A DNA stretch of 64,000 bases from Phyllobates terribilis. Its lineage: Eukaryota. Shown piece by piece: positions 1,942-61,162 of this stretch (positions within the stretch are counted from its first letter, which is position 1; every line of letters starts with the position of its first letter). The DNA is taken from NCBI RefSeq assembly GCF_046119375.1, contig NW_027362763.1, forward strand, positions 63,178,001 to 63,242,000, given 5' to 3'. Made by a program: the position numbers and the translations under genes. The notes beneath the pieces are model-generated. The model saw nothing but the letters and a program-made list of their open reading frames with translations, had not been told where the DNA came from and did no database searches.

Positions 1942-2057
1942 TTTGGTGGTTAACTAATTCACAACTCTGGAGTTGTTTGCACAAAAAAACAATGGATGGT
2001 AACCGAGCAGAGCTGAGTGGCCAAACTGTGGTATTAGGCCAAAACTATTGGCTGGGT

Positions 2058-24062: not shown

Positions 24063-25787
24063 TATGCCCTTTTTAGTAAATCGTTCTATCCCTACCCACT
24101 TTATAACCCTGTCCCTGCCAAATGCCCCCCAATCTTCCACAGAAGTTGACAGGTCACTGCCTCCCACGAAATTGACACACTTGTCTCCTACTGCTGAGGA
24201 TCCTGCCCCTTTCAAACCTTCATCTGTGAATTAAACCATTGATACATTATGACTTTTTTCCGATCCTCAATGACATCAATCATAAGAGTGGACAGGTCAC
24301 TGCCTCCCAACAAGGTCAGCACACTCTTCTCCTGCTGCTGTCATCTTTTTCATTGTGTGGTTTCACATCTTTCGCAAACAGAAATAATGGGACAACAGAA
24401 AGTGCGCTTTAAGGACAGCTGAATTTATTTTACGGCAGACACAAAACCTTTACATCGGATTATATAAAAGCGCATTTATAATAAACACCGCTTCGTTCAG
24501 AACGATCTTCCGCAAAACAGTAGCCGATTTGTCTTAAAAGCTTCATTTACCAGACTGCCATTTACCAGACTTTCTTGTCCCGCAGCTACCCCTAAACTAT
24601 TTCACTGGATGTGTGCCCCATACCAAAAATCAAATATCCTGATATAATCAGATAAAAGGAGAGATGGGAACTGATGGAAAAATAGCAGGAAAAGAAAAAG
24701 AAAATATGAATAATGAAATGTCAAACCACAGTTTCTCCGGTTCCATAAATACACAAGGGAATTACGCTGCGTCTATTTAAAACCTTTTACTTTTCTATTC
24801 GGTCCCGATTTTATAACATTCATAAAAACCATGTCTAATGAGACTAAGTATCCTAAGAGGGAACATCTATATTGCGCGTAATGGTTTACATGTGTGAGTC
24901 CCTCCTGGCAGCAGCACTGTAATTAGTCTGTCGTCTCCCGGAGAAGAGTCGATCTGTCTTAAGGATGCATGAGAAAGTCTTGGCTGCTATCATCCACGTC
25001 CCGGCTTCGATATTCATCCTAGATAAACATCTTCTCTTTTCACTTCTTCATCATCTTCTCTTTTGACTTATTGGCTCAGCTCTGGCTTTTCGAAACCTAA
25101 GAAGACAGAGAGGAGAACAAACTATTTTCTTCCGCCCTTGTTCAGCAAAACAAGAAGAAAGGACTTGGCTTGTTGACATCAATAACTTCTGCTTTGACTT
25201 CAGCTTGGAACATTGTGTATAAAAAGACAAAATGAGTACAAGAACTTCCTGTTTTACTCCTTAAGAAGCTCACATACGCTACATATATGGCCCCGGACAT
25301 GATCTCCTTCGGGACGGACCACATTGCACAGTTGGAAAGCCAAGGACGTAGAATATTATTTCCCTTCACAAATTTTATTGGAGCTATTAAAAGACAATCA
25401 CATGGTGTGGCCGCGGCAGACAGCGTTATGTGTTTAAGAGTTTGTGGTCTCGAGACTTGCGAGCGAAGTAGAGGTTGTGTTGGATGCTTCGTGCCTTCGA
25501 GCAGCATTGTGTTTACTTTATCAGAAGAATACCGTCACAGGAGAAGGCTAGAGCCAGAAATAATACCGCTCGGCTCAGGCTAACATTGTTCTGTTCCCGA
25601 CACCTAAATCTGATCCCCAGAATATTATTTATTTGTGGGAAATGGACATGGACCGTCTTAGAAGATCAAAGGTTACAAAACGTTTAGTCATACGGGAAGG
25701 CGAGAAAACACATTAACACATCGAAGGTTAGAAGGCGGACAAAGTAAACTGTGGTGCACAAGTCAATAGCTTCTATATATTTGCAGC

Positions 25788-25790
<3 letters not shown>

Positions 25791-25828
<38 letters not shown>

Positions 25829-25830
25829 TA
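25791..25830. repeat. (TA)n microsatellite abutting a Tc1 end
   Basis: Directly visible. Confidence 0.95.
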
Positions 25831-25832
25831 CA

Positions 25833-27296
25833 CAGCACAGACCAAAAGTTTGGACACACCTTCTCATTTAAAGATTTTTCTGAAAATATGTCTTATATTC
25901 TAGGTTCTTCAAAGTAGCCACCTTTTGCTTTGATGACTGCTTTGCACAATCTTGGCATTCTTTTGATGAGTTTCAAGAGGTAGTCACCGGAAATGGTCTT
26001 TCAACAATCTTGAAGGAGTTCCCAGAGATGCTTAGCACTTGTTGGCCCTTTTGCCTTCACTCTGCGGTCCAGCTCACCCCAAACCATCTCGATTGGGTTC
26101 AGGTCTGGTGACTGTGGAGGCCAGGTCATCTGGCGTAGCACCCCATCACTCTCCTTCTTGGTTAAATAGCCCTTACACAGCCTGGAGGTGTGTTTGGGGT
26201 CATTGTCCTGTTGAAAAATAAATGATGGTCCAACTAAACGCAAACCGGATGGAATAGCATGCCGCTGCAAGATGCTGTGGTAGCCATGCTGGTTCAGTAT
26301 GCCTTCAATTTTGAATAAATCCCCAACAGTGTCACCAGCAAAGCACCCCCACACCATCACACCTCCTCCTCCATGCTTCACGGTGGGAACCAGGCATGTA
26401 GAGTCCATCCGTTCACCTTTTCTGCGTTGCACAAAGACATGGTGGTTGGAACCAAAGATCTCAAATTTAGACTCATCAGACCAAAGCACAGATTTCCACT
26501 GGTCTAATGTCAATTCCTTGTGTTCTTTAACCCAAACAAGTCTCTTCTGCTTGTTGCCTGTCCTTAGCAGTGGTTTCCTAGCAGCTATTTTACCATGAAG
26601 GCCTGCTGCACAAAGTCTCCTCTTAACAGTTGTTGAAGAGATGTGTCTGCTGCTAGAACTCTGTGTGGCATTGACCTGGTCTCTAATCTGAGCTGCTGTT
26701 AACCTGCGATTTCTGAGGCTGGTGACTCGGATAAACTTATCCTCAGAAGCAGAGGTGACTCTTGGTCTTCCTTTCATAGGGCGGTCCTCAAGTGAGCCAG
26801 TTTTTCCGACTGACTGACCTTCATTTCTTAAAGTAATGATGGCCACTCGTTTTTCTTTACTTAGCTGCTTTTTTCTTGCCATAATACAAATTCTAACAGT
26901 CTATTCAGTAGGACTATCAGCTGTGTATCCACCTGACTTCTGCACAACACAACTGATGGTCCCAACCCCATTTATAAGACAAGAAATCTCACTTATTAAA
27001 CCTGACAGGGCACACCTGTGAAGTGAAAACCATTTCCGGTGACTACCTCTTGAAGCTCATCAAGAGAATGCTAAGAGTGTGCAAAGCAGTCATCAAAGCA
27101 AAAGGTGGCTACTTTGAAGAACCTAGAATATAAGACATATTTTCAGTTGTTTCACACTTTTTTGTTAAGTATATAATTCCACATGTGTTAATGCATAGTT
27201 TTGATGCCTTCAGTGTGAATGTACAATTTTCATAGTCATGAAAATACAGAAAAATCTTTAAATGAGAAGGTGTGTCCAAACTTTTGGTCTGTACTG
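25833..27296 (-). mobile_element. Tc1 family A copy (CAGTACAGACCAAAAGTTTGGACAC TIR)
   Basis: TIRs at both ends and transposase ORF 26001-26882. Confidence 0.95.
25894..26882 (-). pseudogene. Tc1 transposase with an N-terminal in-frame deletion and a late lesion
   Basis: MARKKQLSKEKR..., [31 protein letters not shown]. The segment RKIGQTLKVSPSSVAKTIKRYKE seen in the copy at 46790 is missing here. Confidence 0.92.
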
Positions 27297-27368
27297 GATA
27301 TGTTTATATTTAGTCCCAAATGACTAAGCTTAGATGGACTTGTCAGAGCTGTAGGAAGGGCAACAGGG

Positions 27369-29705: not shown

Positions 29706-29750
29706 TAGATATGTTTATCTTATTTATATGCAAGTTTTTTAAAAAATATA

Positions 29751-30205
29751 CAGTACAGACCAAAAGTTTGGACACACCTTCTCATTTAAAGATTTTTCTG
29801 TATTTTCATGACTATGAAAATTGTACATTCACACTGAAGGCATCAAAACTATGAATTAACACATGTGGAATTATATACTTAACAAAAAAATTGTAAAACA
29901 ACTGAAAATATGTCTTATATTCTAGGTTCTTCAAAGTAGCCACCTTTTGCTTAGATGACTGCTTTGCACACTCTTGGCATTCTCTTGATGAGCTTTAAGA
30001 GGTAGTCGCCGGAAATGGTTTTGATTTCACAGGTGTGCCCTGTCAGGTTTAATAAGTGGGATTGCTTGCCTTATAAATGGGGTTGGGACCACCAGTTGTG
30101 TTGTGCAGAAGTCTGGTGGAAACACAGCTGATAGTCCTACTGAATAGACTGTTAGAATTTGTATTATGGCAAGAAAAAAGCAGTCCAAACTTTTGGTCTG
30201 TACTG
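29751..30205 (+). mobile_element. Internally deleted Tc1 family A copy (455 bp)
   Basis: TA|CAGTACAGACC..., full 5' TIR, leader and ATGGCAAGAAAAAAGCAG, joined directly to TCCAAACTTTTGGTCTGTACTG|TA. Confidence 0.92.
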
Positions 30206-30258: not shown

Positions 30259-31552
30259 TGTGGCTCCCCTGAGGGTTCAGTCGCCACAGGGGTACTGCAC
30301 CTCAGCTTGAGGTGTGGTATCTCCTCTTCCAGGTAAGGATGGAGCACTTCTCGGGACCCTACTTCACCATTCAACACTACACCACTCCTGTCCTGTAGGG
30401 GGCCTAAATGCACCAGGGTGCTGCCCCGGGCCTGGATATAGGAGATGGGGGGAACCAAAGATAGGGGGAATCATGTAGTGGATGAGGGTGGAGGACACAC
30501 TTTTAGGGTACACTTACTCATTGATATTTAATCTACGGCCATCTTAGGAACAAGGGTCTTTGATTGTGATCTTCATCAGTGATTGCGGTCTCCGTCTCTG
30601 ATTGTGATCACCCACCAGAGTTCAGTAGTAGGCCTTATCCGACTGAAGATACACGATCCTCGGTCTCTGGCCTTGAGGCGAGGAGCGGGTCAGAGTTAAC
30701 CACTGTCTCTACCCGGTCAAGGTCCTGACCTAAGAAGGCCTGGAGGGGAGCAGAGGAGACAAGCTCCACAGGCAAAAGGATCCCAGGGGGATACGGACGG
30801 AGCGGCCTACGCCACCTGTATTTCTTACTCTGGCCAAGTCAGAGGGACTCCTGCTGCAAGAGGGGTGACCGGCCCCTGATATCTGACTCTGTTACTTCAC
30901 GTCTCAGTCGGAAAAGCCCGGAGTCTTAGTGGATCCCAGGAGGGATACGGACGGAGCGGCGTATGCCACCTGTACCTCTCTACCTGCGTTCATCCAGTGG
31001 GACCCGGCCTTACACCTAGTTCTAACCACACAAACAGTCAGGAGGAGACTTAGTGGGAGAACTCACCAAGGAGAGGAACACACACCAGAGGGGTCTCGAC
31101 AGGTGCTCCTGATCTACCTGGAAAGTGCTGGACCCCCTTCCCGGTGGCCACAGTACGCCGCGAGGAGCAGAGGGAAGCTTTGCGGCTAAAGTTCACCTGA
31201 ATGTGAGTATAAACCCTGGATGACTTCACACCCCGCTTCAGCCTGTTATTTCCTGCGTGGCACTGCACCCACCATTCCTCATCACACTGCCCTGAGGCCT
31301 GCTCCGCCTGTGGGGAGCCGTCCCATCTAAGCTGCCTTTAAACACCGGCCTCAGTGGACTGAAGCAGCGCCGTTGCCCATCACCGGAAACCGTAGGTGGC
31401 GTAGTTGGAAAATACCACTCAACCCTGAAAGCCCATTAAATCTTTTATGTGACCGCCCTGGGCACGGACCGGGTCCGGGCCACAACTGCAACCCCGAAAC
31501 ACCTACACTGACCCGGCTCCAAGTAACCCCATTTCTCAGGGAGGGCCTCACA
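30259..31552 (+). mobile_element. Gypsy solo LTR, 1294 bp, 4-bp TSD GTAG
   Basis: GTAG|TGTGGCTCCCC ... GGCCTCACA|GTAG. Shares CCCTGGGCACGGACCGGGTC with the full-length element LTRs. Confidence 0.9.
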
Positions 31553-33488: not shown

Positions 33489-34453
33489 TGTGGCACCCCA
33501 GGGGTCTGGTTTCCACAGTAATGTAATGTTATGTCTGAGAGCAGGTGGGAGGTCCTTTGGTCAGGGATCCTGTGCATGCCACACCTCCTGCCCAGTCTTG
33601 GGAGGGGAAGAACTTCCCCTATATAAACCCGGGGCTGAAGCAGGGTTAGTAGTCAAGAAGAGTAGAGACAAGAAACAGCAGAAGCAATACTACTACGAGT
33701 CAGGGGCTGGCAGCTGCAGAGCTCGCCCTGACTGAGAAGCTTTCTTACCGGACCCGGCGTCCGAGGCTGTGGGGACTAACTCTTACCCAGCAGCAGAAGC
33801 CGACCGGCAGGGGATTTCAGGTCCTCAGGCCCAGAAACCCGAAGGCATGGTCACACGCGTGGGACCAGCACCGCCATCATGGAGCGGAAGCCATTAGAAG
33901 GCCCCGAGTCACCGGCCATACGGGTGAGCACCACACGGTACACTCAGGGACGTGGGCTACTTATATCCGCTTCTAGCAAGGTAGCCAGAAGAGTACAGTC
34001 AGTTTGGGAGGCCTACAACTCCGCCTGGCCAGGGGAGATCCCATCTGCTCAAGGACTGACCAGGCCCCGTTCACTAGCAAGTACTCCGGGAGGGTCTATC
34101 GTTGTTACCAGTAAAGACCCTGAATTACACCGCACCGTCTCTGGGTGGTTCCTGCTACCCCCATCATCCACATCTGCTGCCCTGAGGCCATACCCCTCCC
34201 GTCGGGGGTTATACCATCTACGCTGCACCATCCATCCACCGGCCTCAGCGGACTGTCCTGCAGCGGCAGCTCCATAGCTGCATTCAACGGGTGGCTTAGT
34301 CGTCCTACATCTACCGCTGTTACATCGCCGCTCAGTTTGACTCCCTGGGCACGGACCGGGTCACCGCCACGAGACTGCAACCCTCAAGAGATCCGGCTCC
34401 GGGTAAGCTCCCGCGTGCGCAACGCAGCGCGACACAGGCCCAGGGGCGCGTCA
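33489..34453 (+). repeat. 5' LTR (965 bp)
   Basis: TG...CA ends, TATATAAA at 33620, AGTAAA at 34110, about 10 substitutions versus the 3' LTR by manual comparison. Confidence 0.97.
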
Positions 34454-34457
34454 ACTT

Positions 34458-34476
34458 TGGCGTAGTCGGCAGGATT
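34458..34476 (+). promoter_or_regulatory. Primer binding site complementary to the tRNA-Ser 3' end
   Basis: TGGCGTAGTCGGCAGGATT is the reverse complement of the vertebrate tRNA-Ser(AGA/TGA) end AATCCTGCCGACTACG-CCA (recalled sequence). It lies 4 nt after the LTR. Confidence 0.9.
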
Positions 34477-34884
34477 TCGTGCCCGCAACCACCGGGTACT
34501 GCGTGCCTGAAAAAGAGACTTTTCAAACTTACCTGTGGTGAAGATTCCCGCCATCTTCAGCCTTCTTCCCGCCATCGGTGAAGTTTCCCGCCATCCGGCG
34601 CCATCTTGTGCCTTCTTCCCGCCATCCGTGGAGTTTTCCCGCCATTGGACGCCATCTTGAGGACGCCGCGCGGGAAGAAGAGGGGCGTGGACTCCGAAAG
34701 CGCGCGAGAACTGAAGCCCCGCCTCACGTCCGGACGTTGCGTAAGGTCCTGGAAGGAGCCCAGCAGACGCCGACGTCACAGGAGCGCGATGGAAGGTCCT
34801 CAACCCTGACGATCCACTGCGGAGCCGCGGCCTACGGAAGAAGATCATCGCAAGGTAGGCCACGGTCCACTAGGGGGGAGGAAG

Positions 34885-35865
34885 ATGTCGGATACGGAGG
34901 AGAGCTTCACTGCCTCAACCCCCGCCAGCGCTACCGCTGCTGCAGTTATGCCCTTCACCATGCCCTATATCCCGGGAGCAGCTTGGCTACCCCAGTACTC
35001 AGGGGAGTCACATACCCTGCATGACTTTAGAAAAAAGCTGGATAGCCTCTTCCAGGTGTACCCCCTCACAGAAGAGCAAAAAGTGAGCATCCTGGTGGCC
35101 CAACTAACCGGGGCAGCCAAAAGGGAAGTAAAATCCTGGCCACATGGGAGGAAGACTGTCGCAGGGATACTAACCCGGCTGTAGGACACCTTTGATACCC
35201 GCACCTCAGCCGAGATTAAGCTTAGATTCTACGGGTGCAAGCAGCGAGCGCATGAGAGTATAAGGGACTATGCACTAAACCTACAAGAGGCCCTGAGGGC
35301 CATTAAGCAGACCGACCCTGATGGAGTGGGAAACGAGGACAGGCTGTTGACCGAACAGTTTATAGAGGGACTGTATTGTAATACCCACCGAACCCAGTTG
35401 CGGGCAATGGCCTTACAGGATCCCCATCTGGGCTTTGCACAGTTCAAGGACAGAGCCATCCGGCTGCTCCGAGAACCGGCACCGGGTGGCGTGGTGACCC
35501 ACAAGCGCCCTGCTATCACTTACCACCAGGAGGCGGCGCCCTTGTCGGCAGGGCCTGTGGGAGCTGATGCGCAGGCTTTGGACAATGACCCGGCTCCAGA
35601 CCTACACCATCAGGTCCAAGAGCTAGCTAAGAGCGTTGCTGCGCTAACCCGAACTGTGCAGTCTTTACAGGCTTCCACCCCAGGGAAGATCCAGCTGGCA
35701 TCCGGACCGGAGGACATCCCGTGGCGTCGACCAAGGAGGACCCCACCGGCCAGAGGAAGACCCAGTGACCGATACAGCGAGGACGGACGACCCATCTGCC
35801 GCCGCTGCAATCAACCTGGACATATGGCAAGGTACTGTTCTTTAAACGGGCACAACCTGGGGTAG
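34885..35865 (+). pseudogene. gag: Gag (PNMA/Arc-like capsid, CCHC knuckle), in-frame TAG at 35182-35184
   Basis: ORFs 34885-35184 and 35326-35865 are in one frame; CRRCNQPGHMARYC zinc knuckle. Confidence 0.9.
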
Positions 35866-35881
35866 AGGGCCAACCCCCAGG
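35841..35881 (+). promoter_or_regulatory. -1 ribosomal frameshift signal
   Basis: T TTA AAC heptamer (35841-35847) in gag phase, 8-nt spacer, stem CCTGGGG (35856-62) / CCCCAGG (35875-81). pol is in the -1 frame and open from the heptamer. Confidence 0.85.
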
Positions 35882-38800
35882 AAAAAGATCACCAGGCCCA
35901 TCGAACTGGCGCGACAGATATGTGGGAGGACGTCCAGTCTTGCCTGTGGTACTGGATGGCATTCCCATGAGTGCCCTACTGGACACCGGGTCACAGGTCA
36001 CCACCATCCCGTACGTGCTCTTTAAGCAGTACTGGAATGACTCGGATATTACCCGCTACCCTGACGACGACTTGAGTATCATCGCCAGCAATGGCCAGCC
36101 CGTGCCACAGATCGGATTTAAAGAGGTGACCATCAAAATCGGTAGAGTCGAACTGGCAGCACAGGGACTGATCATTGTAGATATTGACAAACATGAGAGT
36201 CACCCAAAAATAACTCTAGGAACTAATGTAATTGAAAATTGTCTTGCAGAGGTGATTTTCCTTTTACAGCAGGTTGCCAAGAACGCCAGCTCCGGCGAGC
36301 AGCGGGTGCTCCAGAAAGAGATCCGGGCACTGATGTGACGGCAACAGGTGGAACTCTCCGGCGGTGAGATTGGTAGCGTAAGAATGTGTGACCCTTTTCC
36401 TATTGCCATGCCCCCAAAAAGTGAAATGATGATTTGGTGCCGGGCAGCTATTGGTCTGAGAGGTAGAGATTACCAGGCAATGGTAGAACCAGTTTACTCG
36501 GACAGTAGGCCCACCATTTTGACAGCACGGGGGGTGGTTGATGTACGCCATGGGAGGGTGCCCGTTCGCATAATAAATATCGGGGAGAGGGAAGTGTACC
36601 TGCCCCGGTATGCCACGCTAGCCAAATTATATACCATTAACCAAAATTCTATACAGTCTGTGGAACCCTTGCCTCCATCTCACCCGGAGGAAGGTAACTG
36701 CTCTAAGAAAAACATGGAGGACTGGTGTCAGCAACTACATCTGGGTACTGACTCCACTCCCGCACACCAGAAACAAGGAGTCTATCGGGTGGTTCAGGAG
36801 TACGAGAGAGTGTTCAGTAAACACCCGTTAGACTTCGGGCGAGTCAAGGGGGTAGAACACCACATCCCCACGGGAGACCATCCTCCTATAAAAGAGAGGT
36901 ATCGACCCGTACCCCCTGCCCACTACCAACACGCCAAGGGGATGCTTAGAGACATGAAGGAGGCTTGGGTGATCAGGGATAGCTGTAGCCCCTGGGTAGC
37001 TCCACTAGTCTTAGTCCGAAAGAAAGACAACACCATGAGGATGTGTGTAGATTACCGGAAAATCAATCGTATCACACACAAGGATGCGTACCCCTTACCA
37101 AGGATAGAGGAGTCATTGGCTGCTTTAAGATCTGCTAACTTCTTCTCTACCTTGGATCTCACTAGCGGGTACTGGCAGGTTCCTGTAGCAGAGGCGGACC
37201 GGGAGAAGACCGCATTCACCACCCCGATGGGACTTAGCGAGTTCACCTGCATGCCGTTCGGACTCTGCAATGCACCGGGAACCTTCCAACGACTAATGGA
37301 GTGTTGTCTGGGCCACAGAAACTTCGAGACGGTCCTGTTGTACCTGGACGATGTCATCGTATATTCCAAGACGTATGAGGACCACCTGAAACACCTGGCG
37401 GAAGTGTTCGAAGCTCTGGCAAGTTACGGCCTATAGGTGAAACCCTCCAAGTGTCACCTCCTGAAACCAAAGGTGCAGTACCTGGGACACGTGGTGAGCG
37501 CTGACGGAGTGGCTCCCGACCCTGATAAGATCACCGCAATTAAGGAATGGCCAAGCCCCTCCAGCGTAAAAGAAGTGCGGCAGTTCCTCGGGTTGGTAGG
37601 CTACTACCGAAGGTTTATTCCCGGTTTCACCAAAAAGGCAGCACCTATGCAGGACCTCCTGATAGGCCAGTCCCGGAAGGCCAAGAACCAGAAGCCGCCC
37701 TTCAAATGGGAGGAGCTGGAAGAAGAGTCCTTCCGCCAGCTGAAGATGGCCCTCACGGGGGACGAAATCCTGGCGTACCCGGATTATAGCCAGCCCTTTA
37801 TCCTCTACACCGACGCCAGTAACATCGGGCTGGGAGCCGTACTGTCCCAGATCCAGCAGGGGAAGGAACGAGTAATCGCCTACGCCAGCCGAAAACTGCG
37901 ACCCACCGAAAGGAACCCCGAGAATTACAGCTCATTTAAGCTAGAGTTCCTGGCCGTAGTATGGGCAGTCACCGAGCGCTTTAAGCATTACCTCGCTTCT
38001 TCCCGGTTCACCGTGTACACGGATAACAACCCGTTGACACACCTGGACACGGCAAGACTCGGTGCCCTGGAGCAGAGGTGGATGGCCTGTCTGTCCAACT
38101 ACGAGTTCACAATCAAATACCGGGCAGGACGCTCCAATACCAACGCGGACGCCCTGTCCAGGATGCCCAACCTGCCGGACGGAGGAGAAGATCCGGAGGG
38201 ACTGGAAGAAGTTGAACTCCCTGCGTTCCACCGTCATGGGACTATCCAGTATTCCCACCGGGTAAGGAGTAAGCAGGCTGCTACGTTGACCCCTTACCCC
38301 ACTACAACTGGGCGGAAACGCAAGACAGCGACCCTGCCGTCCGACTGGTGAAGGAGATGCTGACTCGGCCGGAGGCTCGCCTTGAACCAGACGCTCCGGA
38401 GGAAGCCAAACAACTATGGGCAGAGAAGAGTCGACTGTTCCTTTACAAAGGGAAGTTGTGCCGCAGAATGGTTAACTCCCGGACGCATGAATTACTCTGG
38501 CAAGTAGTGGTGCCACGAAGAGACACAGCCATGGTGATGGAGGCATACCACGACGGAGCTGGACACTTCGGGTGGAAGAAGCTGGAGTTCCTGCTGCGCG
38601 AGCGGTTCCACTGGGTAGGCATGAGGGGAACCATCGAGAAGTGGTGCAGAGACTGTGGCCCGTGCAACCTGAGAAGGAAGGACCGTGCCAGCCAGAAGAC
38701 TCCCCTGCAGTCCATCGTCACCCGGCAACCGTTGGAACTGGTAGCCTTGGATCATGTAAAACTGACCCCAAGCAGAAGTGGCTACGTCTACGCGTTAACC

Positions 38801-39974
38801 ATCGTGGATCATTACTCCCGGTTTCTGGTTGTCGTCCCCGTCAAGGACTTAACGGCTCAAACAGCAGCTAGAGCCTTCCAGCAGCACTTTTGCCGTCCAC
38901 ACGGGTACCCGGACCAAGTGCTGACGGACCAGGGACCTGCCTTTGAAGCGGAGGTCTTCCAGGAATTCTGCAATCTGTATGGCTGCCGGAAGATAAGGAC
39001 GACACCCTACCATCCGCAAACTAATGGACTTTGTGAGAAAAGAACCAGGTGGTAATGGATCTTCTAAAAACGTTGCCCCTGGAAGAACGCAGTCTGTGGC
39101 CTGAGAAGTTGCCCGATCTGGTGGACCTATACAACCACATCCCGGTAGGTTCCACCAACTGTACCCCGGCTTACCTAATGAGGCAAGACCTGGTAAGTTA
39201 CCTGTTGACCTGGAAATGGGAGTCCTGACACCCGAGGACACTTCACCAGAAACAGACTGGGACACAGAGAGGCAGCAGCAGTACCGGAGAGTACAGGAGA
39301 GCGTGGAGCGAAGTCTCTGTCAGGCTAGGGAAAGACAAGAGAAAACTTACAACCAGTATGCTCCCGCTGTTCCCCTGGTACCCGGAGAGCAGGTCTTGAA
39401 GAGGAAGAGACGGCTCCACAAGTTGGACGACCAGTGGGAGAAGGACCCGTACACCGTACTGCCCTGAAGCCACGAGAACCCGAAGGTTTGTACCATCAGT
39501 AAAGACGGAGGGGAAACCACAGCCATTGTATCCCGGGACCACCTGAAGAAGTGTCCCGAACAACTGAGGAACCCTGAAGAGGAACAAGAAGACCATCGAC
39601 CCGTAGAGGAAAGGGAAGATATGGTTAGTACTGTGCTCGGGGACTTCCCTCGGTCTTGGACTCAAGTCAATGGTGCAGTTGTGGTACCCGTACTCACCTT
39701 CCTCCAACCAGCATCCCAAGCACCTACGGAGCAACAGGTAGAGCTGGAAGAACAGCCGGTCCAGGAGGCAGAAGACTCCACACAAGCAGAACAGGAGGAT
39801 CAACCCTCTGCTTATAGTGAGCCTGCCGTACCCCTAGTGAGACAAAGAGCCGGTAGACAGCTGCCCAGTTTACCCTTGACAGCTCCTACACCCTGTAGTT
39901 CAGGGCCAGACAGTCAGCTCCGTAGGTCCACTAGGGCCACTAGAGGCCAGTTACCCGCATGCTGGAGGATTTGA
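35841..39974 (+). pseudogene. pol: Pol polyprotein (protease, RT, RNase H, integrase), disrupted
   Basis: LLDTGSQVT; LDLTSGYWQV, MPFGLCNAPGTFQR, YLDDVIV; YTDASN, VYTDNNPL; H..H..C..C and D,D(35)E integrase core. Stops at 36336, 37434 and 39465; frameshifts near 38290, 39040 and 39183. Confidence 0.96.
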
Positions 39975-40321
39975 AGTGTATAAATTGTTTTATTTATGTT
40001 TATCTGTGTATTGTTGCTTGTGTATAATTTTGTGTTTCCAGTTATTTTTAGGAATCCTTGGTGGATTTACCGGGAATCCTTGTACATAGTTGGAGCGTAA
40101 CCCAGGATGGACTAGAGACTGTTAAGGACTCGGGGTAGGACAGACCCCTACCTGGTTACGTCTCCCTGTTTTGGTGAAATGGACACCTTGCTTTCTTCAA
40201 AGACTGCACCCGGTTACGGACATGCCGTGACCACCTTTATGTGTTTCTTATTGTATTGTTATTGTTATATCTTGTTATGTTTTTCTAAAATGTGTTTAGT
40301 CCCGGAGTACTAAAATTTACT

Positions 40322-40330
40322 AGGGGGGAA
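40322..40330 (+). promoter_or_regulatory. Polypurine tract
   Basis: AGGGGGGAA immediately 5' of the 3' LTR. Confidence 0.85.
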
Positions 40331-41295
40331 TGTGGCACCCCAGGGGTCTGGTTTCCACAGTAATGTAATGTTATGTCTGAGAGCAGGTGGGAGGTCCTTT
40401 GGTCAGGGATCCTGTGCATGCCACACCTCCTGCCCAGTCTTGGGAGGGGAAGAACTTCCCCTATATAAACCTGGGGCTGAAGCAGGGTTAGTAGTCAAGA
40501 AGAGTAGAGACAAGAAACAGCAGAAGCAATACTACTACGAGTCAGGGGCTGGCAGCTGCAGAGCTCGCCCTGAATGAGAAGCTTTCTTACCGGACCCGGC
40601 GTCCGAGGCTGTGGGGACTAACTCTTACCCAGCAGCAGAAGCCGACCGGCAGGGGATTTCAGGTCCTCAGGCCCAGAAACCCGAAGGCACGGTCACACGC
40701 GTGGGACCAGCACCGCCATCGTGGAGCGGAAGCCATTAGAAGGCCCCGAGTCACCGGCCATACGGGTGAGCACCACACGGTACACTCAGGGACGTGGGCT
40801 ACTTATATCCGCTTCTAGCAAGGTAGCCAGAAGAGTACAGTCAGTTTGGGAGGCCTACAACTCCGCCTGGCCAGGGGAGATCCCATCTGCTCAAGGACTG
40901 ACCAGGCCCCGTTCACTAGCAAGTACTCCGGGAGGGTCTATCGTTGTTACCAGTAAAGACCCTGAATTACACCGCACCGTCTCTGAGTGGTTCCTGCTAC
41001 CCCCATCATCCACATCTGCTGCCCTGAGGCCATACCCCTCCCCTTGGGGGTTATACCATCTACGCTGCACCATCCATCCACCGGCCTCAGCGGACTGTCC
41101 TGCAGCGGCAGCTCCATAGCTGCATTCAACGGGTGGCGTAGTCGTCCTACATCTACCGCTGTTACATCGCCGCTCAGTTTGACTCCCTGGGCACGGACCG
41201 GGTCACCGCCACGAGACTACAACCCTCAAGAGATCCGGCTCCGGGTAAGCTCTCGCGTGCGCAACGCAGCGCGACACAGGCCCAGGGGCGCGTCA
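40331..41295 (+). repeat. 3' LTR (965 bp)
   Basis: Direct repeat of 33489-34453. Confidence 0.97.
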
Positions 41296-44580: not shown

Positions 44581-44943
44581 GTCACCACACGTCCTGTACT
44601 CTGTAGGAGTCAGAAGAACTGAAAAGGAGATGAACTGGTGATAAGTCCTCTAATGTCTGTCTGTGTCTGCGTGTCTTTGTATCTATGTGTGTTTGTGCGT
44701 TGTGTTGAGTCTAGAATTTATTGGCTCCTGGTGGTATATATTAGTGAAGACATTAGAATGTATGGGCCCCTGGTGGTATATATTAGTGAAGACATCAGAA
44801 TGTACGAGCTCCCTGGTAGGTATATCCAGTATGTGTCTGTATGTATATGCTCTGTGCATGCACGTGTCTGTATGTAATTGCTCTGTATATACCTATGTCT
44901 ATGTATGTGCTCTGTATACATGTTTATGTATTGGGGGAAGGTA

Positions 44944-47196
44944 CAGTACAGACCAAAAGTTTGGACACACCTTCTCATTTAAAGATTTTTCTGTATTTTC
45001 ATGACTATGAAAATTGTACATTCACACTGAAGGCATCAAAACTATGAATTAACACATGTGGAATTATATACTTAACAAAAAAGTGTGAAACAACTGAAAA
45101 TAAGTCTTATATGCTAGGTTCTTCAAAGTAGCCACCTTTTGCTTTGATGACTGCTTTGCACACTCTTGGCATTCTCTTGATGAGCTTCAAGAGGTAGTCA
45201 CCGGAAATGGTCTTCCAACTATCTTGAAGGAGTTCCCAGAGATGCTTAGCACTTGTTGGCCCTTTTCCCTTCACGCTGCGGTCCAGCTCACCCCAAACCA
45301 TCTCGATTGGGTTCAGGTCTGATGACTGTGGAGACCAGGTCATCTGGCGTAGCACCCCATCACTCTCCCTCTTGGTCAAATAGCCCTTACACAGCCTGGA
45401 GGTGTGTTTGGGGTCATTGTCCTGTTGAAAAATAAATGATGGTCCAACTAAACGCAAACCGGATGGAATAGCATGCCACTGCAAGATGCTGTGGTAGCCA
45501 TGCTGGTTCAGTATGCCTTCAATTTTGAATAAATCCCCAACAGTGTCACCTGCAGAGCACCCCCACACCATCACACCTCCTCCTCCATGCTACACGGTGG
45601 GAACCAGGCATGTAGAGTCCATCCGTTCACCTTTTCTGCGTCGCACAAAGACACGGTGGTTGGAACCAAAGATCTCAAATGTGGACTCATCAGACCAAAG
45701 CACAGATTTCCACTGGTCTTATGTCCATTCTTTGTGTTCTGTAGCCCAAACAAGTCTCTTCTGCTTGTTGCCTGTCCTTAGCAGTGGTTTCCTAGCAGCT
45801 ATTTTACCATGAAGACCTGCTGCACAAAGTCTCTTCTTAACAGTTGTTTAAGAGATGTGTTGTCACGCTGTCTCTGTATACTGGAGGTAGGGGGCCTAAG
45901 CTGACCCTAAGCTGGGGCCCTGACTAATCCCTCAACCTGGAGGTACTGTTAAAGGTACAGAGGTCCAGGCCGCCAGCGTAACCCCTACCTCCTGAGGATC
46001 CCTGCACCTAAGTAATCTAGTCCTGAGAAGGACCCCGATCACAACAAAAGGGGACAAGTAATAATATGCCCACACACAGTACTTAGACGAATGAGACAGT
46101 ACAAGGGAAAAACCAAAACCACCTTGCATACAAAAACGACACAACTACAACAGAGGGAACACCAACGGGAAAGGAGATAAATGATAAAGCGAGGAAGGGA
46201 AAAAACTCTCCGAATACACTTATCTCTGAAACTCCAAATACCACGATCCGCTCTGTTAGTCTGCATGAAATGCTTTCACCGACACTTCCCTAACAGACCA
46301 GCAGGCATTTGAAGGAGTCTCACTACAGCAGCATTGATTGCAGCTGGGCGAGGCTGGACCTCATCTAGCACAGAGAGAGAGAGAATTAACTCCCTCACTG
46401 CCGAAAAACACAAAGCACCAAAAAGTCAGCTGCGAGAAGTCAGGCTGTGTAATCGTGACGATCTTCGTGGCGACACACCCGTGACATGTGTCTGCTGCTA
46501 GAACTCTGTGTGGCATTGACCTGGTCTCTAATCTGAGCTGCTGTTAACCTGCGATTTCTGAGGCTGGTGACTCGGATAAACTTATCCTCAGAAGCAGAGG
46601 TGACTCTTGGTCTTCCTTTCCTGGGGCGGTCCTCATGTGAGCCAGTTTCTTTGTAGCGCTTGATGGTTTTTGCAACTGAACTTGGGGACACTTTCAAAGT
46701 TTGCCCAATTTTTCGGACTGACTGACCTTCATTTCTTAAAGTAATGATGGCCACTCGTTTTTCTTTACTTAGCTGCTTTTTTCTTGCCATAATACAAATT
46801 CTAACAGTCTATTCAGTAGGACTGTCAGCTGTGTATCCACCAGACTTCTGCACAACACAACTGATGGTCCCAACTCCATGTATAAGGCAAGAAATCCCAC
46901 TTATTAAACCTAACAGGGCACACCTGTGAAGTGAAAACCATTTCCGGTGACTACCTCTTGAAGCTCATCAAGAGAATACCAAGAGTGTGCAAAGCAGTCA
47001 TCAAAGCAAAAGGTGGCTACTTTGAAGAACCTAGAATATAAGACATATTTTCAGTTGTTTCACACTTTTTTTGTTAAGTATATAATTCCACATGTGTTAA
47101 TTCATAGTTTTGATGCGTTCAGTGTGAATGTACAATTTTCATAGTCATGAAAAAACTTTAAATGAGAACGTGTGTCCAAACTTTTGGTCTGTACTG
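44944..47196 (-). mobile_element. Tc1 family A copy interrupted by a solo LTR, TA TSD
   Basis: TIRs at both ends; transposase pieces 46440-46790, 45571-45753 and 45107-45574. Confidence 0.95.
45861..46486. mobile_element. Solo LTR, 626 bp, 5-bp TSD TGTGT
   Basis: TGTGT|TGTCACGC ... CCGTGACA|TGTGT. Removing it restores GAGATGTGTCTGCTGCTAG seen in the other Tc1-A copies. Confidence 0.92.
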
Positions 47197-49096: not shown

Positions 49097-52000
49097 CCAC
49101 TTCGCACCAGAGCCTGTTTTCGTCTTCATGACCGGGCCAATTTTTTCAATTCTGACCACTGTCACTTTATGAAGCAATTACTCTGGAACGCTTCAACGGA
49201 TCCCCCTGATTCTGAGATTGTTTTTTCGTGACATATTGTACTTCATGATAGTGGTAAAATTTCTTCGATATCACTTGCTTTTATTTGTGAAAAAATCGGA
49301 AATTTGGCAAAAATGTTGAAAATTTCACAATTTTCAAACTTTGAATTTTCATGCCCTTTTAAATCAGAGAGATGTGTCACACAAAATAGTTAATAAATAA
49401 CATTTCCCACATGTCTACTTTACATCAGCACAATTTTGGAACCAAAATTTTTTTTGTTAGGAAGCTATAAGGGTTAAAAGTTGACCAGCGATTTCTCATT
49501 TTTCCAACAAAATTTACAAAAACATTTTTTTAGGGACCACATCTTATTTGAAGTGACTTTGAGGGGCCTTTAAGACAGAAAATACCCAAAAGTGACACCA
49601 TTCTAAAAACTGCACCCCTCAAGGTGCTCAAAACCACATTCAAGAAGTTTATTAACCCTTCAGGTGCTTCACAGGAATTTTTGGAATGTGGAAGAAAACA
49701 ATGAACATTTAACTTTTTTTCACAAAAATGTTACTTTAGACCCAATTTTTTTATTTTCATCCCTTAATTTTGCATTATCATAAGGGTAATAGGAGAAATT
49801 GCACATGAAATGTGTTGTGCAATTTCTCCTGAACAGGCTGATACCCCATATGTGGGGGAAAACCACTATTTGGGTACACTGCAGGGTGCGGAAGGGAAGG
49901 AGCGCCATTTGACTTTTTGAATGTAAAATTTGTTTGAATAATTAGCAGACGCCATGTCGCATTTGGGGAGCCGCTAATGTGCCTAAACAGTGGAAACCCC
50001 CCACAAGTGACACCATTTTGGAAACTAGACCCCTTAGGGAACTTATCTAGATGTGTGGTGAGCACCTTGCACCCCCAGGTGCTTCACAGAATTTTATAAT
50101 ATTGAGCCGTAAAAATTAAATTTTCACATTTTTCCCACAAAAAATGTTTTTCATCCCCTAATTTTGCATTATCATAAGGGTAACAGGATAAATTGCACCA
50201 TGAAATTTGTTGTGCAATTTCTCCTGAGTACACCGATACCCCATATGTGGGGGAAAACCACTGCTTTGGTGTACGGCAGGGTTCGGAAGAGAAAGGAGCG
50301 CTATGTTGGCTGGGATAGGTGGCAGACACCATGTCACATTTGAAGAGTCGCTGACATGCCGAAACAGCAGAAACCCCCACAAGTGACCCCATTTTGTAAA
50401 CTACACCTCTCAAGGAATTCATCTAGGGAAGTAGTGAGTATTTTTTAATTTTTAAATTTATATCATTGGGCAGTGAAGAAAATATAATTATATTTTTACC
50501 ACAAAAAAATGTTTTACCCTCAGATTTTACATTTTCACACAGGGCAATGGGTAAAATTGGTGCCGAAATGTGTCACACAATTTCTTCTAAAAGTGGCAAT
50601 ACCCCATATGTGGCTGTATCGTACTGCTCAGCCATACGGCGAGATCTGGGGGGGACGGAGCGCTATTTGACAATTGGAGAACAAATTATTGTAGAATAGG
50701 CATTTGGATTTGGGAGCACAACATTTTCTGAATTTCTTTTGGGGGGCAAGGGCCATTTCGCTTTTCCAGAGCCTTTCTGCTACCAGTAACTTGGAATATT
50801 TTTAACAGATGACGGACCTGAGTGGGGACTAGCTTTTTTTGAGGACGGAGTTGAAGCTTTTTTTGGGAACATTTAATGTAACATTTATCCGGCGCTCTAG
50901 GCTGAGCACTTACATCGGGGTTTCCATCTAAATTTCCAAGTGATGTAATTCAGATGAAACCCCTGAGGGATCTGTAGCACCCTGAGGACTCGGCTGCTAC
51001 AGGGGTATTACGCCTCAAGCCAGAGGTGTGGTATTCCACTCCCGGGTAAGGATGGAGTGTGGAACTGAGCTCAGTTAGCTGCATGCACTACACACATCCC
51101 ATTTCCGGGGAATAGACCGATGGTACTCCCACTAGAGAAATGTGCAGGTACAACAGTGTCTGTTCCTGGCTGGAGTGGGAGGGGGGTGGAACATCCCAGT
51201 AGTGTAGGGGCAGATAGGGGGAGCAGCCTGGGTAAAGCTAGGAGCTCATTGGGTGCTGGTCACCTGAGCTCACACATAGAGGGAGTATATAAGGTGGGCA
51301 CCATCTTAGATCAGGGTCAGTCTGTGAGACGTCAGTCTGTGAGACGTCAGTCGGTTGTCAGTCAGCCAGTCAGACAGTCTGTCTGAGAGCCTGAGAAGCA
51401 GAGCAGAGGAGAAGGAAGAGAGACCCAGAGGCGCAGAGGGGACCCCAAGATCCCAAAATAAGGACAAAAGGGTGAAGGGTCGGCAAAAGGGTACCGGATC
51501 CCAAGCTGGCAGAGGCTACAGCACACCTTAGCCAGGAACCGGAGGTCGTGGGCAGGATCTGCCACGACCACCCACTAAATCCACCCGGAAGGCAAACCAA
51601 GAATAGGGTCAGGGAACCCAGAGACAAGGGTTTACCAACAGGAGGCCCGAGGGAGCCGGACTTAGGTGGATCCCTGGTGGGGAAGGCCGGAGAGGAGGAC
51701 GAGTCAGAAAGGAGCTCAGGACCACACTCCGGAGTTGCCTGGGAGTTGACCGAGTCCAGGACCTGGTGGACGCAGCACGGCTCGGGTGGTCACTGCTGTA
51801 CACAGTGACCCGAGCAACACCAGTAAGTAAAACCCTGGAACTGCATTTTATGCCTCTGAGTCTCTTTGCTGCACCTTCACAACCACCATCCTCCACGGCT
51901 GACCCCCTGAGGCTATACCCCTCCCGTTGGGGGTTATACTACCAAAGCTGCACACATACCAACAGCCTCAGCGGACCCTGCTGCAGCGGCGGCCTTTTGA

Positions 52001-53904
52001 CCGCAAATCAACGGGTGGCGTAGTCGACACAAAGAACTCTAATAACATCTGTAGGACTGCCACACACTGAGTTTGACACCCTGGGCACGGACCGGGTCAC
52101 AGCCACTCGGAGACTACAACCCCCATCTGATCCGGCTCCGGGTATCCCTAACAGCACTGGCCCAGGGGGCGCGTCAGATCCATTCACTGTAATGAGGCAG
52201 CAGAGTTACTCTGGACTCCGTCTGGACTCTGTTTAGCGGTGTCCTTTTTTTCAGAAGTGCACAAAACTGTGGCTAACCGCACTTTTATGCACGCCTAAAA
52301 CAAATGACACCGTGGGATCCCAGGCTAGACGGCGTCCACAGTGGTCTATATCTGCCTCATTACAGGGAATCTTCCGTCATGGGTTCCGTCTGAATCACGT
52401 ATTTCAGAGATTTACACCGAAACTCTGGTGTAAGTGCTCAGCGCAGAGCGCAGGATAAATGTGAGCAGAGCCTTACTGCGGTCTTTGGGAGACATAATAA
52501 ACAAATCAGTAGCAGGTGAAGAATTGGTTTTATTTATTTTTTACCCCGTTCCTAGTGTGATATAACTGATTAGATTACTTTATTCTTCGGGTCGGTGTGA
52601 TTACAGAGATACCAGATTTATATCGGGTTTTTATGACTGACAGCTGTCACATACTAAGAGACGCTTTTTTTGCAAAATCTAGTTTTTGCATCGCCATATT
52701 TTGAGAACTATAATTTTTCCATATTTCGGCCGACAGAGTCATGTGACGGCTTGTTTTTTGCGGGACGAGTTGACGTTTTTATTGGTACCATTTTTGGGTA
52801 CGTGACATTATTTGATCGCTTTCTATTCCGTTTTTTGGGAGGTAAAATTAACAAAAACAACAATTCAGGAATTGTTTTTTGAGGTTTTTTTTTATGCCGT
52901 TCTGCGTGTGGTAAAAGTGATAAGGCAGAGTTAATATTCGGGTCAGTACGTTTACAGCGATACTACACTTACTGTATATTTTTTTATGTTTTGGCGCTTT
53001 TACACAATAAAATATAGAAAAAATATGTTTTTTGCATCGCTTTATTCTGAGAGCTATAACTTTTTTTTATTTTTCGGCTGATGGAACTGTATGGCGGCTT
53101 TTTTTTTGCGGAACAAGATGATGTTTTCAGCGGTACTATTTTTATTTCCATTTTGCTTTTTGATCGCATTTTTTTCCACTTTTTGTTTGGCGATATGATG
53201 CAAAAGCATAGTTTTTTGCTCCGTTTTTTATTTATTTTTATTACGATGTGCACAGAAGGAGTTAATTAGTGTGACAGTTTTATAGATCGGGTTGTTTCGG
53301 ACGCGGCGATACCAAATATGTGTACTTTTTTTGGTTTTGCATAAATATATACGGATTTATTGGTTTAATATTTTATTTATTTATTTTGTGATTTTTTTAA
53401 CAGTTTGAAAACATTTTTTTGACTTTTTTTTTACATTTTTACTTAGTCCTGTATGGGACATTAATTTTTATTTTTCTAATCACTGTTCTCATGCAATGCA
53501 ATAGACATGTATTGCATTGCATGAGAGCTTTGATGACAGTTTCACACTGTTTGTCTCCTGCTAGACTTCAGCTGCAGGCTGAGTCTAGCAGGACACCATA
53601 CATGGCAGATCCGGAAGCGGTCATGTGACCTCCGGCTGCCATGACAATGGCAGGTCCTGTAAGACATCAGGGGGCCGTCGGAGAGGTAAGTGGACGACCC
53701 CCTCTCCTCTCACTATCTTCTAAATGCCGCGATCACTATAGATCTCGGCATATAGAAGATAGCAAAGGGCTAACATCATTGGGACCTGATCCCAATGATG
53801 TTAACCCTTTGGGGCTGCGGGACCACCGACCGTTGATAAACGTCGGCGCTGCACAGAGCCCAGGCAGCGCCGACGTTTATGTACAGTGGGCGGTTGGGAA
53901 GCGC
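49097..53904 (+). mobile_element. Large non-autonomous element with piggyBac-like ends
   Basis: TTAA|CCACTTC left end; right end ...GTTGGGAAGCGC is degenerate and lacks an intact TTAA. No transposase; repeated internal modules. The superfamily call rests on the termini only. Confidence 0.6.
50973..52176 (+). mobile_element. Gypsy solo LTR, 1204 bp, 4-bp TSD GATC
   Basis: GATC|TGTAGCACCC ... GGCGCGTCA|GATC. The 3' end matches the full-length element LTR end. Confidence 0.93.
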
Positions 53905-57940: not shown

Positions 57941-59695
57941 TCACATCACCTGAAAATAAGGAGGGTCTATCCTAGCCTATATAAAAGCCGAGGAAGGGAA
58001 AGCAGCAGTCGTTTTAGATTTAGTGAGAGGATTTCCGATCTCACAGCTCTGCAATAGAGATAGGAAGAGAAAGCTCTATGACATTGGACAAATCCTCCAG
58101 ACAGTAATGAGTTCTACAACAATATCTGTAAAGCGCTGTGGAATTAATGGCACTTTATAAGTGAGTAAAATAAATAAACTGAAACACTGAAGATGATGAG
58201 TGCAGTAGTCTGCAATTGTCTACCTCAAAAATTATGCATCTTGCAAACAATTTTTTTTTGCACATGATTTCTTAATCAGATTTTTCATCAATACACGCTG
58301 TGCCAATAATGTGCCCTATATCAGGTCCCGGATTTTTGGACCTGTGTCTACCTAACATTTCTTATCACAACACATTTGGAAAACTGAAATTTTAGCCATT
58401 TAATTGCACAGATTTGTTTTGCACCTGTTTTCTAGTCCAATTCGACAATCATACACTCCACACCTACACTGTGGTTTGCGGTCACATTTTCTTTTCTGTG
58501 TTGTGTACCTACCTAGAATTTCTTATGCCTTATTTAGTATGAATTGAATAATAGGGGTTTCAAATATTACCAAAACTTATCTGTAGTGATGTAGAAAATG
58601 TATGGTGAAAGAAAAGTGTCAATGGCAATGGGCAGGGTAGTGTAAAAGGAAAAAAATATATATTCTACAGCTAAGAATGTGAGAGCCGTTTGCAAAAGCA
58701 CTACCACTATGAATGGCACCAGCCATCTGGGCTGGTATTACCAGTGCAGTACAGTATTGGTACCACCAATCTCAGGTCACAATTGTCCTCCTTTGCCTCT
58801 GGTAAGTGTATTAATGAGAAGAAGCAGAGTGAGTTATGGAATATATGGCACACTTGTCTCAGTCACAACAGGATCAGGTTACTTCTGACAGCAACATCGT
58901 CAGTTTGAGTCAGTGTTCTGTACAGAACAGTCGGTCTTGTCAAAAATGACTAAGAGGGATAATTTTTGGACCGTTTTTTTTTTTTTATTTTAAAACATGA
59001 AAAGTCTGTCAGTGCTCTGTGTTATTAAATGGACTATTAGTTACTACCAGGTTACTATCTAATTCTGTGGTGAGGCCACATTGACATTACTAAGGTGCTG
59101 TGTTTGTGTTAAATAGCTTTAAAGGGGTTGGATACAGTCCTAGGAGACCTCAGATTGTTGCACACATCTTGTCAGAGTGATTGGAGGTTTTGCAGTTTGC
59201 GTCAAATCAATTTGATGCAAACCAAATTATGGGGGAGGAATTTGTTGACCCATTCAATTTAGAATTTGAATTTCAAAAATGTTCAATGATCTCAAGATAT
59301 GACATCATTTTTTTTTTAAACTGGACAATTTGCAATTATGATCTAAACTTAAATACTAGATCACGGCTCATTAGATAATGGCATATCGCTAGGATATGTC
59401 AATATATTATCGTGGGGATTGTGGAGGTCTGACCTATCTCACCCTCACAATCATAAGAGACTGTGATTTTACTATATAATGCAATACCATAGTACATTGT
59501 ATAAACAATTAGACAATCATAAGTTGATGTCTCCTAAGATAAAGAATAAAAAAAAGTTTTAAAAAATATAGACAGTCAATCCTATGAGCAATGTCATTAT
59601 ATACCTTATCTGCGTATGGGTATCTGATTATCATTTTAATCTGGTTTTTATGTTTTACGAAAATATCAATAAAAATTCTATATTAAAAATATATA

Positions 59696-61157: not shown

Positions 61158-61162
<5 letters not shown>
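59696..61162 (-). mobile_element. Tc1 family A copy with an internal N-terminal deletion
   Basis: TIRs 59696-59953 and 60895-61162; transposase pieces 60470-60748, 60260-60445 and 59849-60121. Confidence 0.95.

Follow-up and report, generated by a model that had tools for sequence, protein, structure and literature searches.

Two sites inside the long terminal repeats of a Ty3/Gypsy family of Phyllobates terribilis match both acceptor strands of the primer tRNA-Ser and change with it: a candidate clamp for primer capture

It is an old question how reverse transcription selects a folded tRNA and opens it for priming, one approached mostly with engineered human immunodeficiency virus (HIV) and Ty1. 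In feline immunodeficiency virus, a loop in the unique 5' region (U5) reportedly pairs with the freed 5' end of the tRNA(Lys3) primer, much as the box described below would do with its own primer; no second copy of the primer binding site (PBS) is known there. Drosophila Gypsy has a second 11-nt site for the primer tRNA, near the 3' end of the RNA, which pairs with the anticodon and T stems, while only the canonical PBS primes (PMC1635307). In the bipartite PBS of Ty1 and Ty3, a short PBS is completed by segments for other tRNA arms, and the 5' ends of the tRNAs pair mutually (PMC5371799). For HIV-1 (primer activation signal, PAS) and avian sarcoma-leukosis virus (U5-TPsiC), an element of the U5 region is reported to pair with a tRNA strand freed on annealing, and in vitro HIV could be made to use another tRNA by a joint adaptation of PBS and PAS (PMC3675109, PMC13191261). 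Here we analyze a stretch of 64,000 nt of Phyllobates terribilis (RefSeq assembly GCF_046119375.1, contig NW_027362763.1, forward strand positions 63,178,001 to 63,242,000; the window), in which a full-length Ty3/Gypsy element and two solo long terminal repeats (LTRs) carry an internal copy of the beginning of the PBS (the motif) and, further downstream, a sequence complementary to the 5' end of the same tRNA-Ser (the box).

The element shows the features of Ty3/Gypsy: TG...CA LTRs with a target site duplication (TSD), a PBS, a polypurine tract and, by Pfam matches, the domain order gag (with a CCHC zinc knuckle), protease, reverse transcriptase (RT), RNase H and integrase. Its closest named proteins are those of dendrobatid frogs (92% and 75%), together with fish elements. 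The PBS exactly complements the last 18 nt of tRNA-Ser(AGA/UGA), and genes for this tRNA are present in the source genome (G000; loci L096 and L101). The sites on which the analysis turns are the following.

33489-41295, plus strand: full-length Ty3/Gypsy element, TSD TTAA, coding parts broken by stops and frame breaks
33489-34453, plus strand: 5' LTR, 965 bp, 10 differences from the 3' LTR
40331-41295, plus strand: 3' LTR, 965 bp
30259-31552, plus strand: solo LTR of a distant subfamily, 1294 bp, TSD GTAG
50973-52176, plus strand: solo LTR of another subfamily, 1204 bp, TSD GATC
34458-34475, plus strand: true PBS, 18 nt complementary to the 3' end of tRNA-Ser(AGA/UGA)
41132-41144, plus strand: motif, GG followed by TGGCGTAGTCG, repeating PBS nt 1-11 inside the LTR as the complement of the 3' acceptor strand and CCA end of the tRNA
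34292-34302, plus strand: motif of the 5' LTR, one substitution
31397-31407, plus strand: motif of the solo LTR at 30259-31552, one mismatch
52016-52026, plus strand: motif of the solo LTR at 50973-52176, exact
41185-41204, plus strand: conserved anchor, 20 nt, its 3' part predicted to pair with 41232-41238 and so display the box in a loop
41208-41220, plus strand: box GCCAC-(GA)-GACTAC, its first part complementary to tRNA-Ser nt 11-7 and its second to nt 6-1
34366-34378, plus strand: box of the 5' LTR, complementary to tRNA-Ser nt 1-11
31478-31489, plus strand: box of the solo LTR at 30259-31552, contiguous, 11/12 pairs with tRNA nt 1-12
52102-52117, plus strand: box of the solo LTR at 50973-52176, with a 5-nt bulge
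41232-41238, plus strand: 3' side of the stem that closes the loop with the box; across 33 copies, 89% of cells are paired

The initial annotation had reported four motif sites, and all are present, exact at 41134-41144 and 52016-52026 and with one mismatch at 34292-34302 and 31397-31407. Its LTR lengths are correct as well (965, 965, 1294 and 1204 bp, each with a 4-bp target duplication), and CCCTGGGCACGGACCGGGTC and CCGGCTCC follow the motif at 4/4 sites. The T in the motif of the solo LTR at 30259-31552 looks like CpG decay, because its subfamily relative L047 has C. Other parts of the description need revision. The LTRs had been called otherwise poorly alignable; the element and the solo LTR at 50973-52176 can in fact be aligned at 74% over about 250 nt close to the 3' end, so that the motif lies within a conserved block, as its best-conserved part. 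The context TCA-ACGGG, thought to mimic the LTR/PBS junction, is not conserved and reads TCC-ACGGG or CC-ACAGG in relatives. Mimicry of the LTR end by the motif was rejected as an explanation, since TCA is not conserved and no LTRs terminate there. The supposedly fixed distance to the LTR end varies from 148 to 170 nt, counted from the motif start, in the 11 representatives measured.

Within the window, the motif 11-mer hardly exceeds chance: with up to 2 mismatches it was found 10 times against 5.7 expected, and 2 of 100 shuffles reached as high a count. Genome-wide, the 20-nt anchor has 97,268 exact copies in 10.6 Gb, and exact TGGCGTAGT stands 30-60 nt upstream of it in 92,981 of these (95.6%). 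The comparison of the motif with its flanks that the initial annotation had proposed was decided in favor of the motif, whose window tops the LTR 3' end in a sample of genomic copies, with a mean identity of 0.97 against a median of 0.66 among 29 cluster representatives; the 3 higher windows overlap the motif window. The underlying alignment holds 95 copies, all chosen by the anchor (the first 90 listed places on contig C1, L092 and the four window copies), reduced to 29 clusters of 61% mean identity, and its first columns are blurred by a fixed-length cut. Among the 29 representatives the two G ahead of TGG are invariant. Conservation through a local hairpin with GACTGCCAC was considered and rejected, as the CGA families (see below) lack that partner.

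The box had been missed in the initial annotation. It lies about 75 nt downstream of the motif, after the anchor, and takes the general form GCCAC-(0-6 nt)-GACTAC. When the last 370 nt of the LTR were searched for sites that could pair with tRNA nt 1-12, the box came out best in 28 of 29 representatives. A second, distant group primed by the same tRNA (262 exact junctions) has a contiguous box, with up to 12/12 nt paired with the tRNA. Folding, cofolding, wobble and 19-window tests were made on 33 copies, 21 from families primed by tRNA-Ser(AGA/UGA) (AGA) and 12 from families primed by tRNA-Ser(CGA) (CGA). Folding places the box in the loop of a conserved stem, mostly unpaired. When 19 windows along the tRNA were compared, only nt 1-12 and nt 73-84 had a strong site at a fixed place (32/33 and 33/33 copies, respectively); pairing with the D, anticodon, variable or T arm was rejected, none of these having a strong fixed-position site.

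Individual copies depart from this layout. Deletions in U5 remove the box or the motif in L185, L197, L199 and L139. Pairs of anchors about 3.5-3.8 kb apart on contig C1 of G000 (e.g., L005/L006 and L028/L029) mark many short elements that keep motif, box and PBS; these have no gag match in their first 1,250 nt and are probably non-autonomous derivatives.

Sister families primed by tRNA-Ser(CGA), with 8,117 exact PBS copies, turned up when family leaders with a different PBS were searched for, and the source genome holds a matching tRNA-Ser(CGA) gene (L200). In these families PBS, motif and box have all changed together. The CGA-type motif occurs in 29 of 30 unselected (first listed) CGA loci and matches the new PBS over 13 nt (67-100% per position, the two lowest being CpG sites), with 20% at nt 14; the AGA-type motif, present in 29/29 AGA representatives, matches over 11 nt. 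For the box, the mean duplex energy with the cognate versus the non-cognate tRNA 5' end is -16.5 versus -13.4 kcal/mol in the 29 AGA representatives and -19.1 versus -10.3 kcal/mol in the 16 of 30 CGA loci whose box was located by script; in the second AGA group it is -19 to -25 versus -9 to -14 in 19 of 20. Both sites are thus real, stand out in conservation from the sequence around them and change with the isoacceptor used as primer. Single copies with a PBS from another tRNA (L163 and L165) retain the AGA motif of their family, and the motif change is therefore a family trait. As an observation apart, the PBS of the single copies L163, L165 and L221 fits neither family type and resembles another tRNA-Ser, likely through one-off near-cognate priming.

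In a gag tree of 35 rows the window family stands beside one CGA subgroup; a gag match within 1,250 nt, sought for placing the second AGA group, was found at 0 of 20 loci. A second tree, of 46 leaders in which motif, box and PBS were masked, gives two primer changes in nearly all bootstrap trees, 2% needing one; it omits seven CGA rows that had duplicates or U5 indels, and its AGA rows were thinned. Searches for a third primer type found none: one search gave 1 match, and the 100 listed of 142 in another read as mutated copies of the two known types.

These changes bear on two of the functions that had been suggested for the motif. The initial annotation had proposed an auxiliary or bipartite primer site; auxiliary tRNA pairing fits, in that the motif changes with the PBS, whereas a bipartite PBS of the Ty1/Ty3 kind does not, because the motif binds the same tRNA segment as the 18-nt PBS. 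It had also proposed a target for tRNA fragments. Such a target for 3' (and 5') fragments would be present in every LTR, solo LTRs included, and 3' fragments are reported to repress LTR elements through the PBS, which solo LTRs normally lack (bioRxiv 10.64898/2026.01.22.698655). Yet selection should delete an extra silencing site rather than re-tune two sites to the element's own primer, which both sites track without this reading explaining it, and only 11-13 nt pair; we hold it very unlikely.

If the sites are kept for pairing, their partner may be the tRNA or each other. A switch within the molecule would have the box pair with the motif or the PBS, the motif being a decoy that frees the PBS, and contact with tRNA would be unneeded. 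A 6-pair motif-box helix can indeed be drawn, with 95% of cells paired and 3 pairs showing two-sided changes. The wobble pair G7-U66 of tRNA-Ser(CGA) separates the two possibilities: nt 11 of the CGA motif is A, pairing with U66, in 12/12 copies, and the box has C, pairing with G7, in 12/12, so that motif and box face each other there with an A:C mismatch in all 12. Nt 12 and 13 of the CGA motif, beyond the reach of the box, still follow the T-stem strand of the tRNA (12/12 and 11/12), and the box is colinear with the tRNA 5' end and not with the motif. With the predicted motif-box pairing at or below 0.03 in 30 of 33 leaders, the intramolecular switch appears improbable, and motif and box very probably pair with the primer tRNA as such.

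The initial annotation had suggested cofolding LTR RNA with tRNA-Ser, and the outcome agrees with its idea of tRNA pairing: U5 and the cognate tRNA engage both acceptor strands, with at least 8 pairs each, in 31 of 33 copies (21/21 AGA and 10/12 CGA), and mean binding is -12.2 and -16.6 kcal/mol with the cognate against -5.3 and -4.2 kcal/mol with the other tRNA. Motif and box are predicted to bind the two strands simultaneously, in nested geometry, and in the cofold shown for the window subfamily the remaining tRNA arms stay folded. Once the PBS is included, it takes the tRNA 3' end in 28/33; as isolated duplexes, PBS, motif and box reach -36.7, -20.4 and -17.1, respectively.

On balance we favor a model in which motif and box form a two-armed clamp in the 5' leader RNA, for capture and hand-off of the primer tRNA; that such a clamp acts in the particle, from a location in U5, and in capturing or activating the primer is what we infer. 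The unpaired 3' end of the tRNA and its nt 8-12 would serve as two toeholds, and strand exchange would open the acceptor stem of the primer. The longer 18-nt PBS would then take over the 3' strand from the motif, while the box would keep the 5' strand of the tRNA from re-closing. Priming at the internal site and strand transfer onto the motif would be rare side effects. Two hallmarks of an extended U5 primer-template interaction are found here, namely a site for the freed tRNA strand and co-change with the PBS at a primer switch.

Motif and box can be read as the ends of an antisense tRNA whose middle part is unrelated and structured. We also entertain, tentatively and with doubt slightly prevailing, an LTR-built anti-tRNA whose two toeholds would invade the acceptor stem, select the isoacceptor and load the PBS, and which would be re-tuned at each primer switch. 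The converse, in which the minus strand (antisense RNA or strong-stop DNA) is itself a tRNA mimic, draws on the likeness of this strand to a tRNA at both ends, to nt 1-11 where it begins and to the 3' end where it stops, and in length (87 nt against 85), with G-U at the wobble position on the minus strand too. Its interior, though, bears no likeness to a T-loop or D-loop, and an Rfam covariance-model scan gave no match over the window LTRs, this region included, at E up to 1; we give this reading next to no credence.

The main rival to the clamp is that motif and box stably hold a second, non-priming tRNA-Ser, to package it selectively, to bridge dimers or to restrain early strong-stop synthesis, with no hand-off. 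It accounts for all the covariation equally well, and in 5 of 33 cofolds the PBS loses to the motif-plus-box state. The second tRNA site of Drosophila Gypsy bridges RNAs and is dispensable for cDNA synthesis (PMC1635307). Against it, a fully paired 3' end should prime, yet internal products are nearly absent, although ends of that kind might fail to integrate. We regard this rival as unlikely, if well short of negligible.

Genomic fossils of reverse transcription give the count of such internal products. The initial annotation had looked to elements terminating at the internal site; 0 LTRs end at TCA, against 18,822 intact copies of that group, and one match after ACGGG is a small deletion against the same 18,822. 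The internal context is joined to the full 18-nt PBS in 2 cases, compared with 46,561 normal junctions with the 4-nt spacer, and CGA families have 1 internal junction against 8,117. The internal site is not a working alternative primer site. L106 is an LTR shortened at the motif. In L105 (L105/L137) an in-register 18-nt tRNA copy stands at the internal site of the 5' LTR only; it is what priming there would leave, though two-step recombination is a possible source.

A different class of product is more frequent. In 82 copies a second U5 piece, which starts at the internal site, comes after the LTR end and PBS; 59 copies have the tRNA-templated tail. Of those examined, 30/30 follow a normal LTR end and at least 7 take the piece from another subfamily; four pairs have the second piece in both LTRs. 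The captured PBS copy replaces 18-20 nt in 18/30, the other 12 being without a close template in the sample. Plus-strand transfer is an established retroviral mechanism, and these structures fit transfers that landed on the motif, thereby duplicating U5 and capturing the PBS. They show that the motif comes at a price and that LTRs of this family do grow by capturing a PBS. Beside these, L093, L094, L095, L098, L099, L100 and L104 have a PBS longer than 18 nt after the LTR end, with extra tRNA-Ser complement (up to about 50 nt, in L093); the search that turned them up was aimed at this extension, and they may be read as plus-strand synthesis that ran past its usual stop in the tRNA.

The motif might accordingly be a relic of PBS-capturing LTR growth, kept in step by occasional copying by RT and without selection. 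The 82 captures, some of them in both LTRs, speak for this, as do the rewritten internal site of L105 and the internal copy in L247, a more distant relative placed, with weak support, among elements that have none. But copying leaves 18 nt, and the fixed match ends at 11-13; nor can it yield a covarying box, since the intervening sequence is shared and not tRNA-like, and it leaves the conservation above the flanks without a cause. We rate an unselected relic as highly improbable. The relic of LTR growth named in the initial annotation thus holds in part: PBS capture is seen in the family and may explain the origin of the motif, and it explains neither its upkeep nor the covarying box.

Several points weigh against the clamp, or limit the evidence for it. 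The 33 copies were preselected by exact motif nt 1-9, though not by the box, and positions 1-9 are no test of pairing. Over 6-7 nt the motif is also the complement of the box, which partly explains their covariation and makes it ambiguous by itself; only 1-3 positions distinguish the models. Folding puts the motif mostly in local helices, with an unpaired probability of 0.11-0.47, and the state in which PBS and box are both bound is a crossed pairing, outside the scoring of the folding program. In 17 of 95 AGA copies nt 11 of the motif is A, a mismatch to the tRNA. The internal motif probably sits in U5, because the conserved, putative AGTAAA signal is upstream; a search for a poly(A) junction gave no retrocopy and no A-tail among the loose ends shown. 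The primer switches are likely two, but a single origin also fits (approximately unbiased test, p 0.27).

Relatives count on the same side. Metagenome contigs contributed 78 loci with a related RT, seven of which combine a Ser-type PBS with 200 nt or more of upstream sequence; the viral contigs searched held no relative. One locus, L247 (61% RT identity; 4312-4371), carries GGG followed by an internal copy of 12 nt of the PBS; this copy lies downstream of AATAAA and 39 nt ahead of the PBS, and there is no box. Because L247 groups weakly with elements lacking the motif, its internal copy may be of independent origin; judged by eye, it is predicted to lie within a local hairpin. Nine other elements with a tRNA-Ser PBS (3 from G000, 6 from metagenome contigs) have no motif and no consistent box, although one of these comparison elements, L244, has a single -16.0 site for the tRNA 5' end. 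A clamp is therefore not needed for Ser priming generally.

The remaining signals of the window element, and further features of the window, are listed here.

33620-33627, plus strand: TATA-like box early in the LTR, putative promoter
34110-34115, plus strand: AGTAAA, putative poly(A) signal, 344 nt before the LTR end (3' LTR copy at 40952-40957)
40323-40330, plus strand: purine run (polypurine tract) before the 3' LTR

Of the 11 representatives with a script-given LTR start, 9 have AGTAAA at a distance of 340-370 nt from the LTR end; one of these starts is misplaced, and the solo LTR at 30259-31552 has TATAAA there. A splice-donor-like GGTAAG lies in U5 at 41243-41249, its GT mostly retained across subfamilies. 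Upstream of the motif, 41020-41095 is a second conserved hairpin block (CCCTGAGG ... CCTCAG), similar to the anchor stem and possibly an old U5 duplication. GGGCACG in the anchor (34344-34350) is complementary to CGTGCCC after the PBS (34478-34484), a possible U5-leader stem that is not present in all families. Positions 41281-41291 and 31393-31402 resemble the CTCF core motif and are candidates, the window's own motif being without the key AG. Elsewhere in the window there are Tc1/mariner-type DNA transposon copies with long inverted repeats (25780-27330, 44940-47160, 59680-61160 and 29720-30180) and tandem arrays at 1941-3822 and 17075-18315, with units of 115 nt and 31 nt.

The family is huge, as the anchor count in this 10.6-Gb genome indicates, and a clamp may bear on the growth of such genomes. 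Every solo LTR leaves a tRNA-complementary site behind, and the genome records LTR growth by PBS capture, which is usually only inferred. Because three sites change together at a natural primer switch, the clamp can be tested without mutagenesis, with two natural leaders and two natural tRNAs.

Exact-phrase and broader literature searches, which did not extend to subscription journals, repeat-database notes and supplements, found no LTR-internal PBS copy with an anti-5'-end box; PMC12220202 is unrelated. The motif-box arrangement is best filed as one that works like an extended primer interaction, in an apparently undescribed variant, and it behaves neither as a bipartite PBS nor as a productive second PBS. 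PBS-like sequence away from its usual place, in remnants retained by hosts, can respond to tRNA fragments; here, the motif is kept by a still-diversifying family and is partnered with a 5'-end box. With Drosophila Gypsy the element shares a second 11-nt site and priming from the canonical PBS only, but its extra sites lie inside the LTR, one repeating the PBS and the other pairing with the tRNA 5' end. As in Ty1 and Ty3, the primer tRNA pairs with more than one stretch of element RNA, whereas here the PBS spans the full 18 nt, and the partners of the extra sites are the two acceptor strands. The U5-region elements of HIV-1 and avian sarcoma-leukosis virus (PMC3675109, PMC13191261) differ in pairing with the T arm and in having no PBS repeat; like the sites described here they pair with a tRNA strand freed on annealing, and the joint adaptation of PBS and PAS in vitro parallels the natural covariation of PBS, motif and box.
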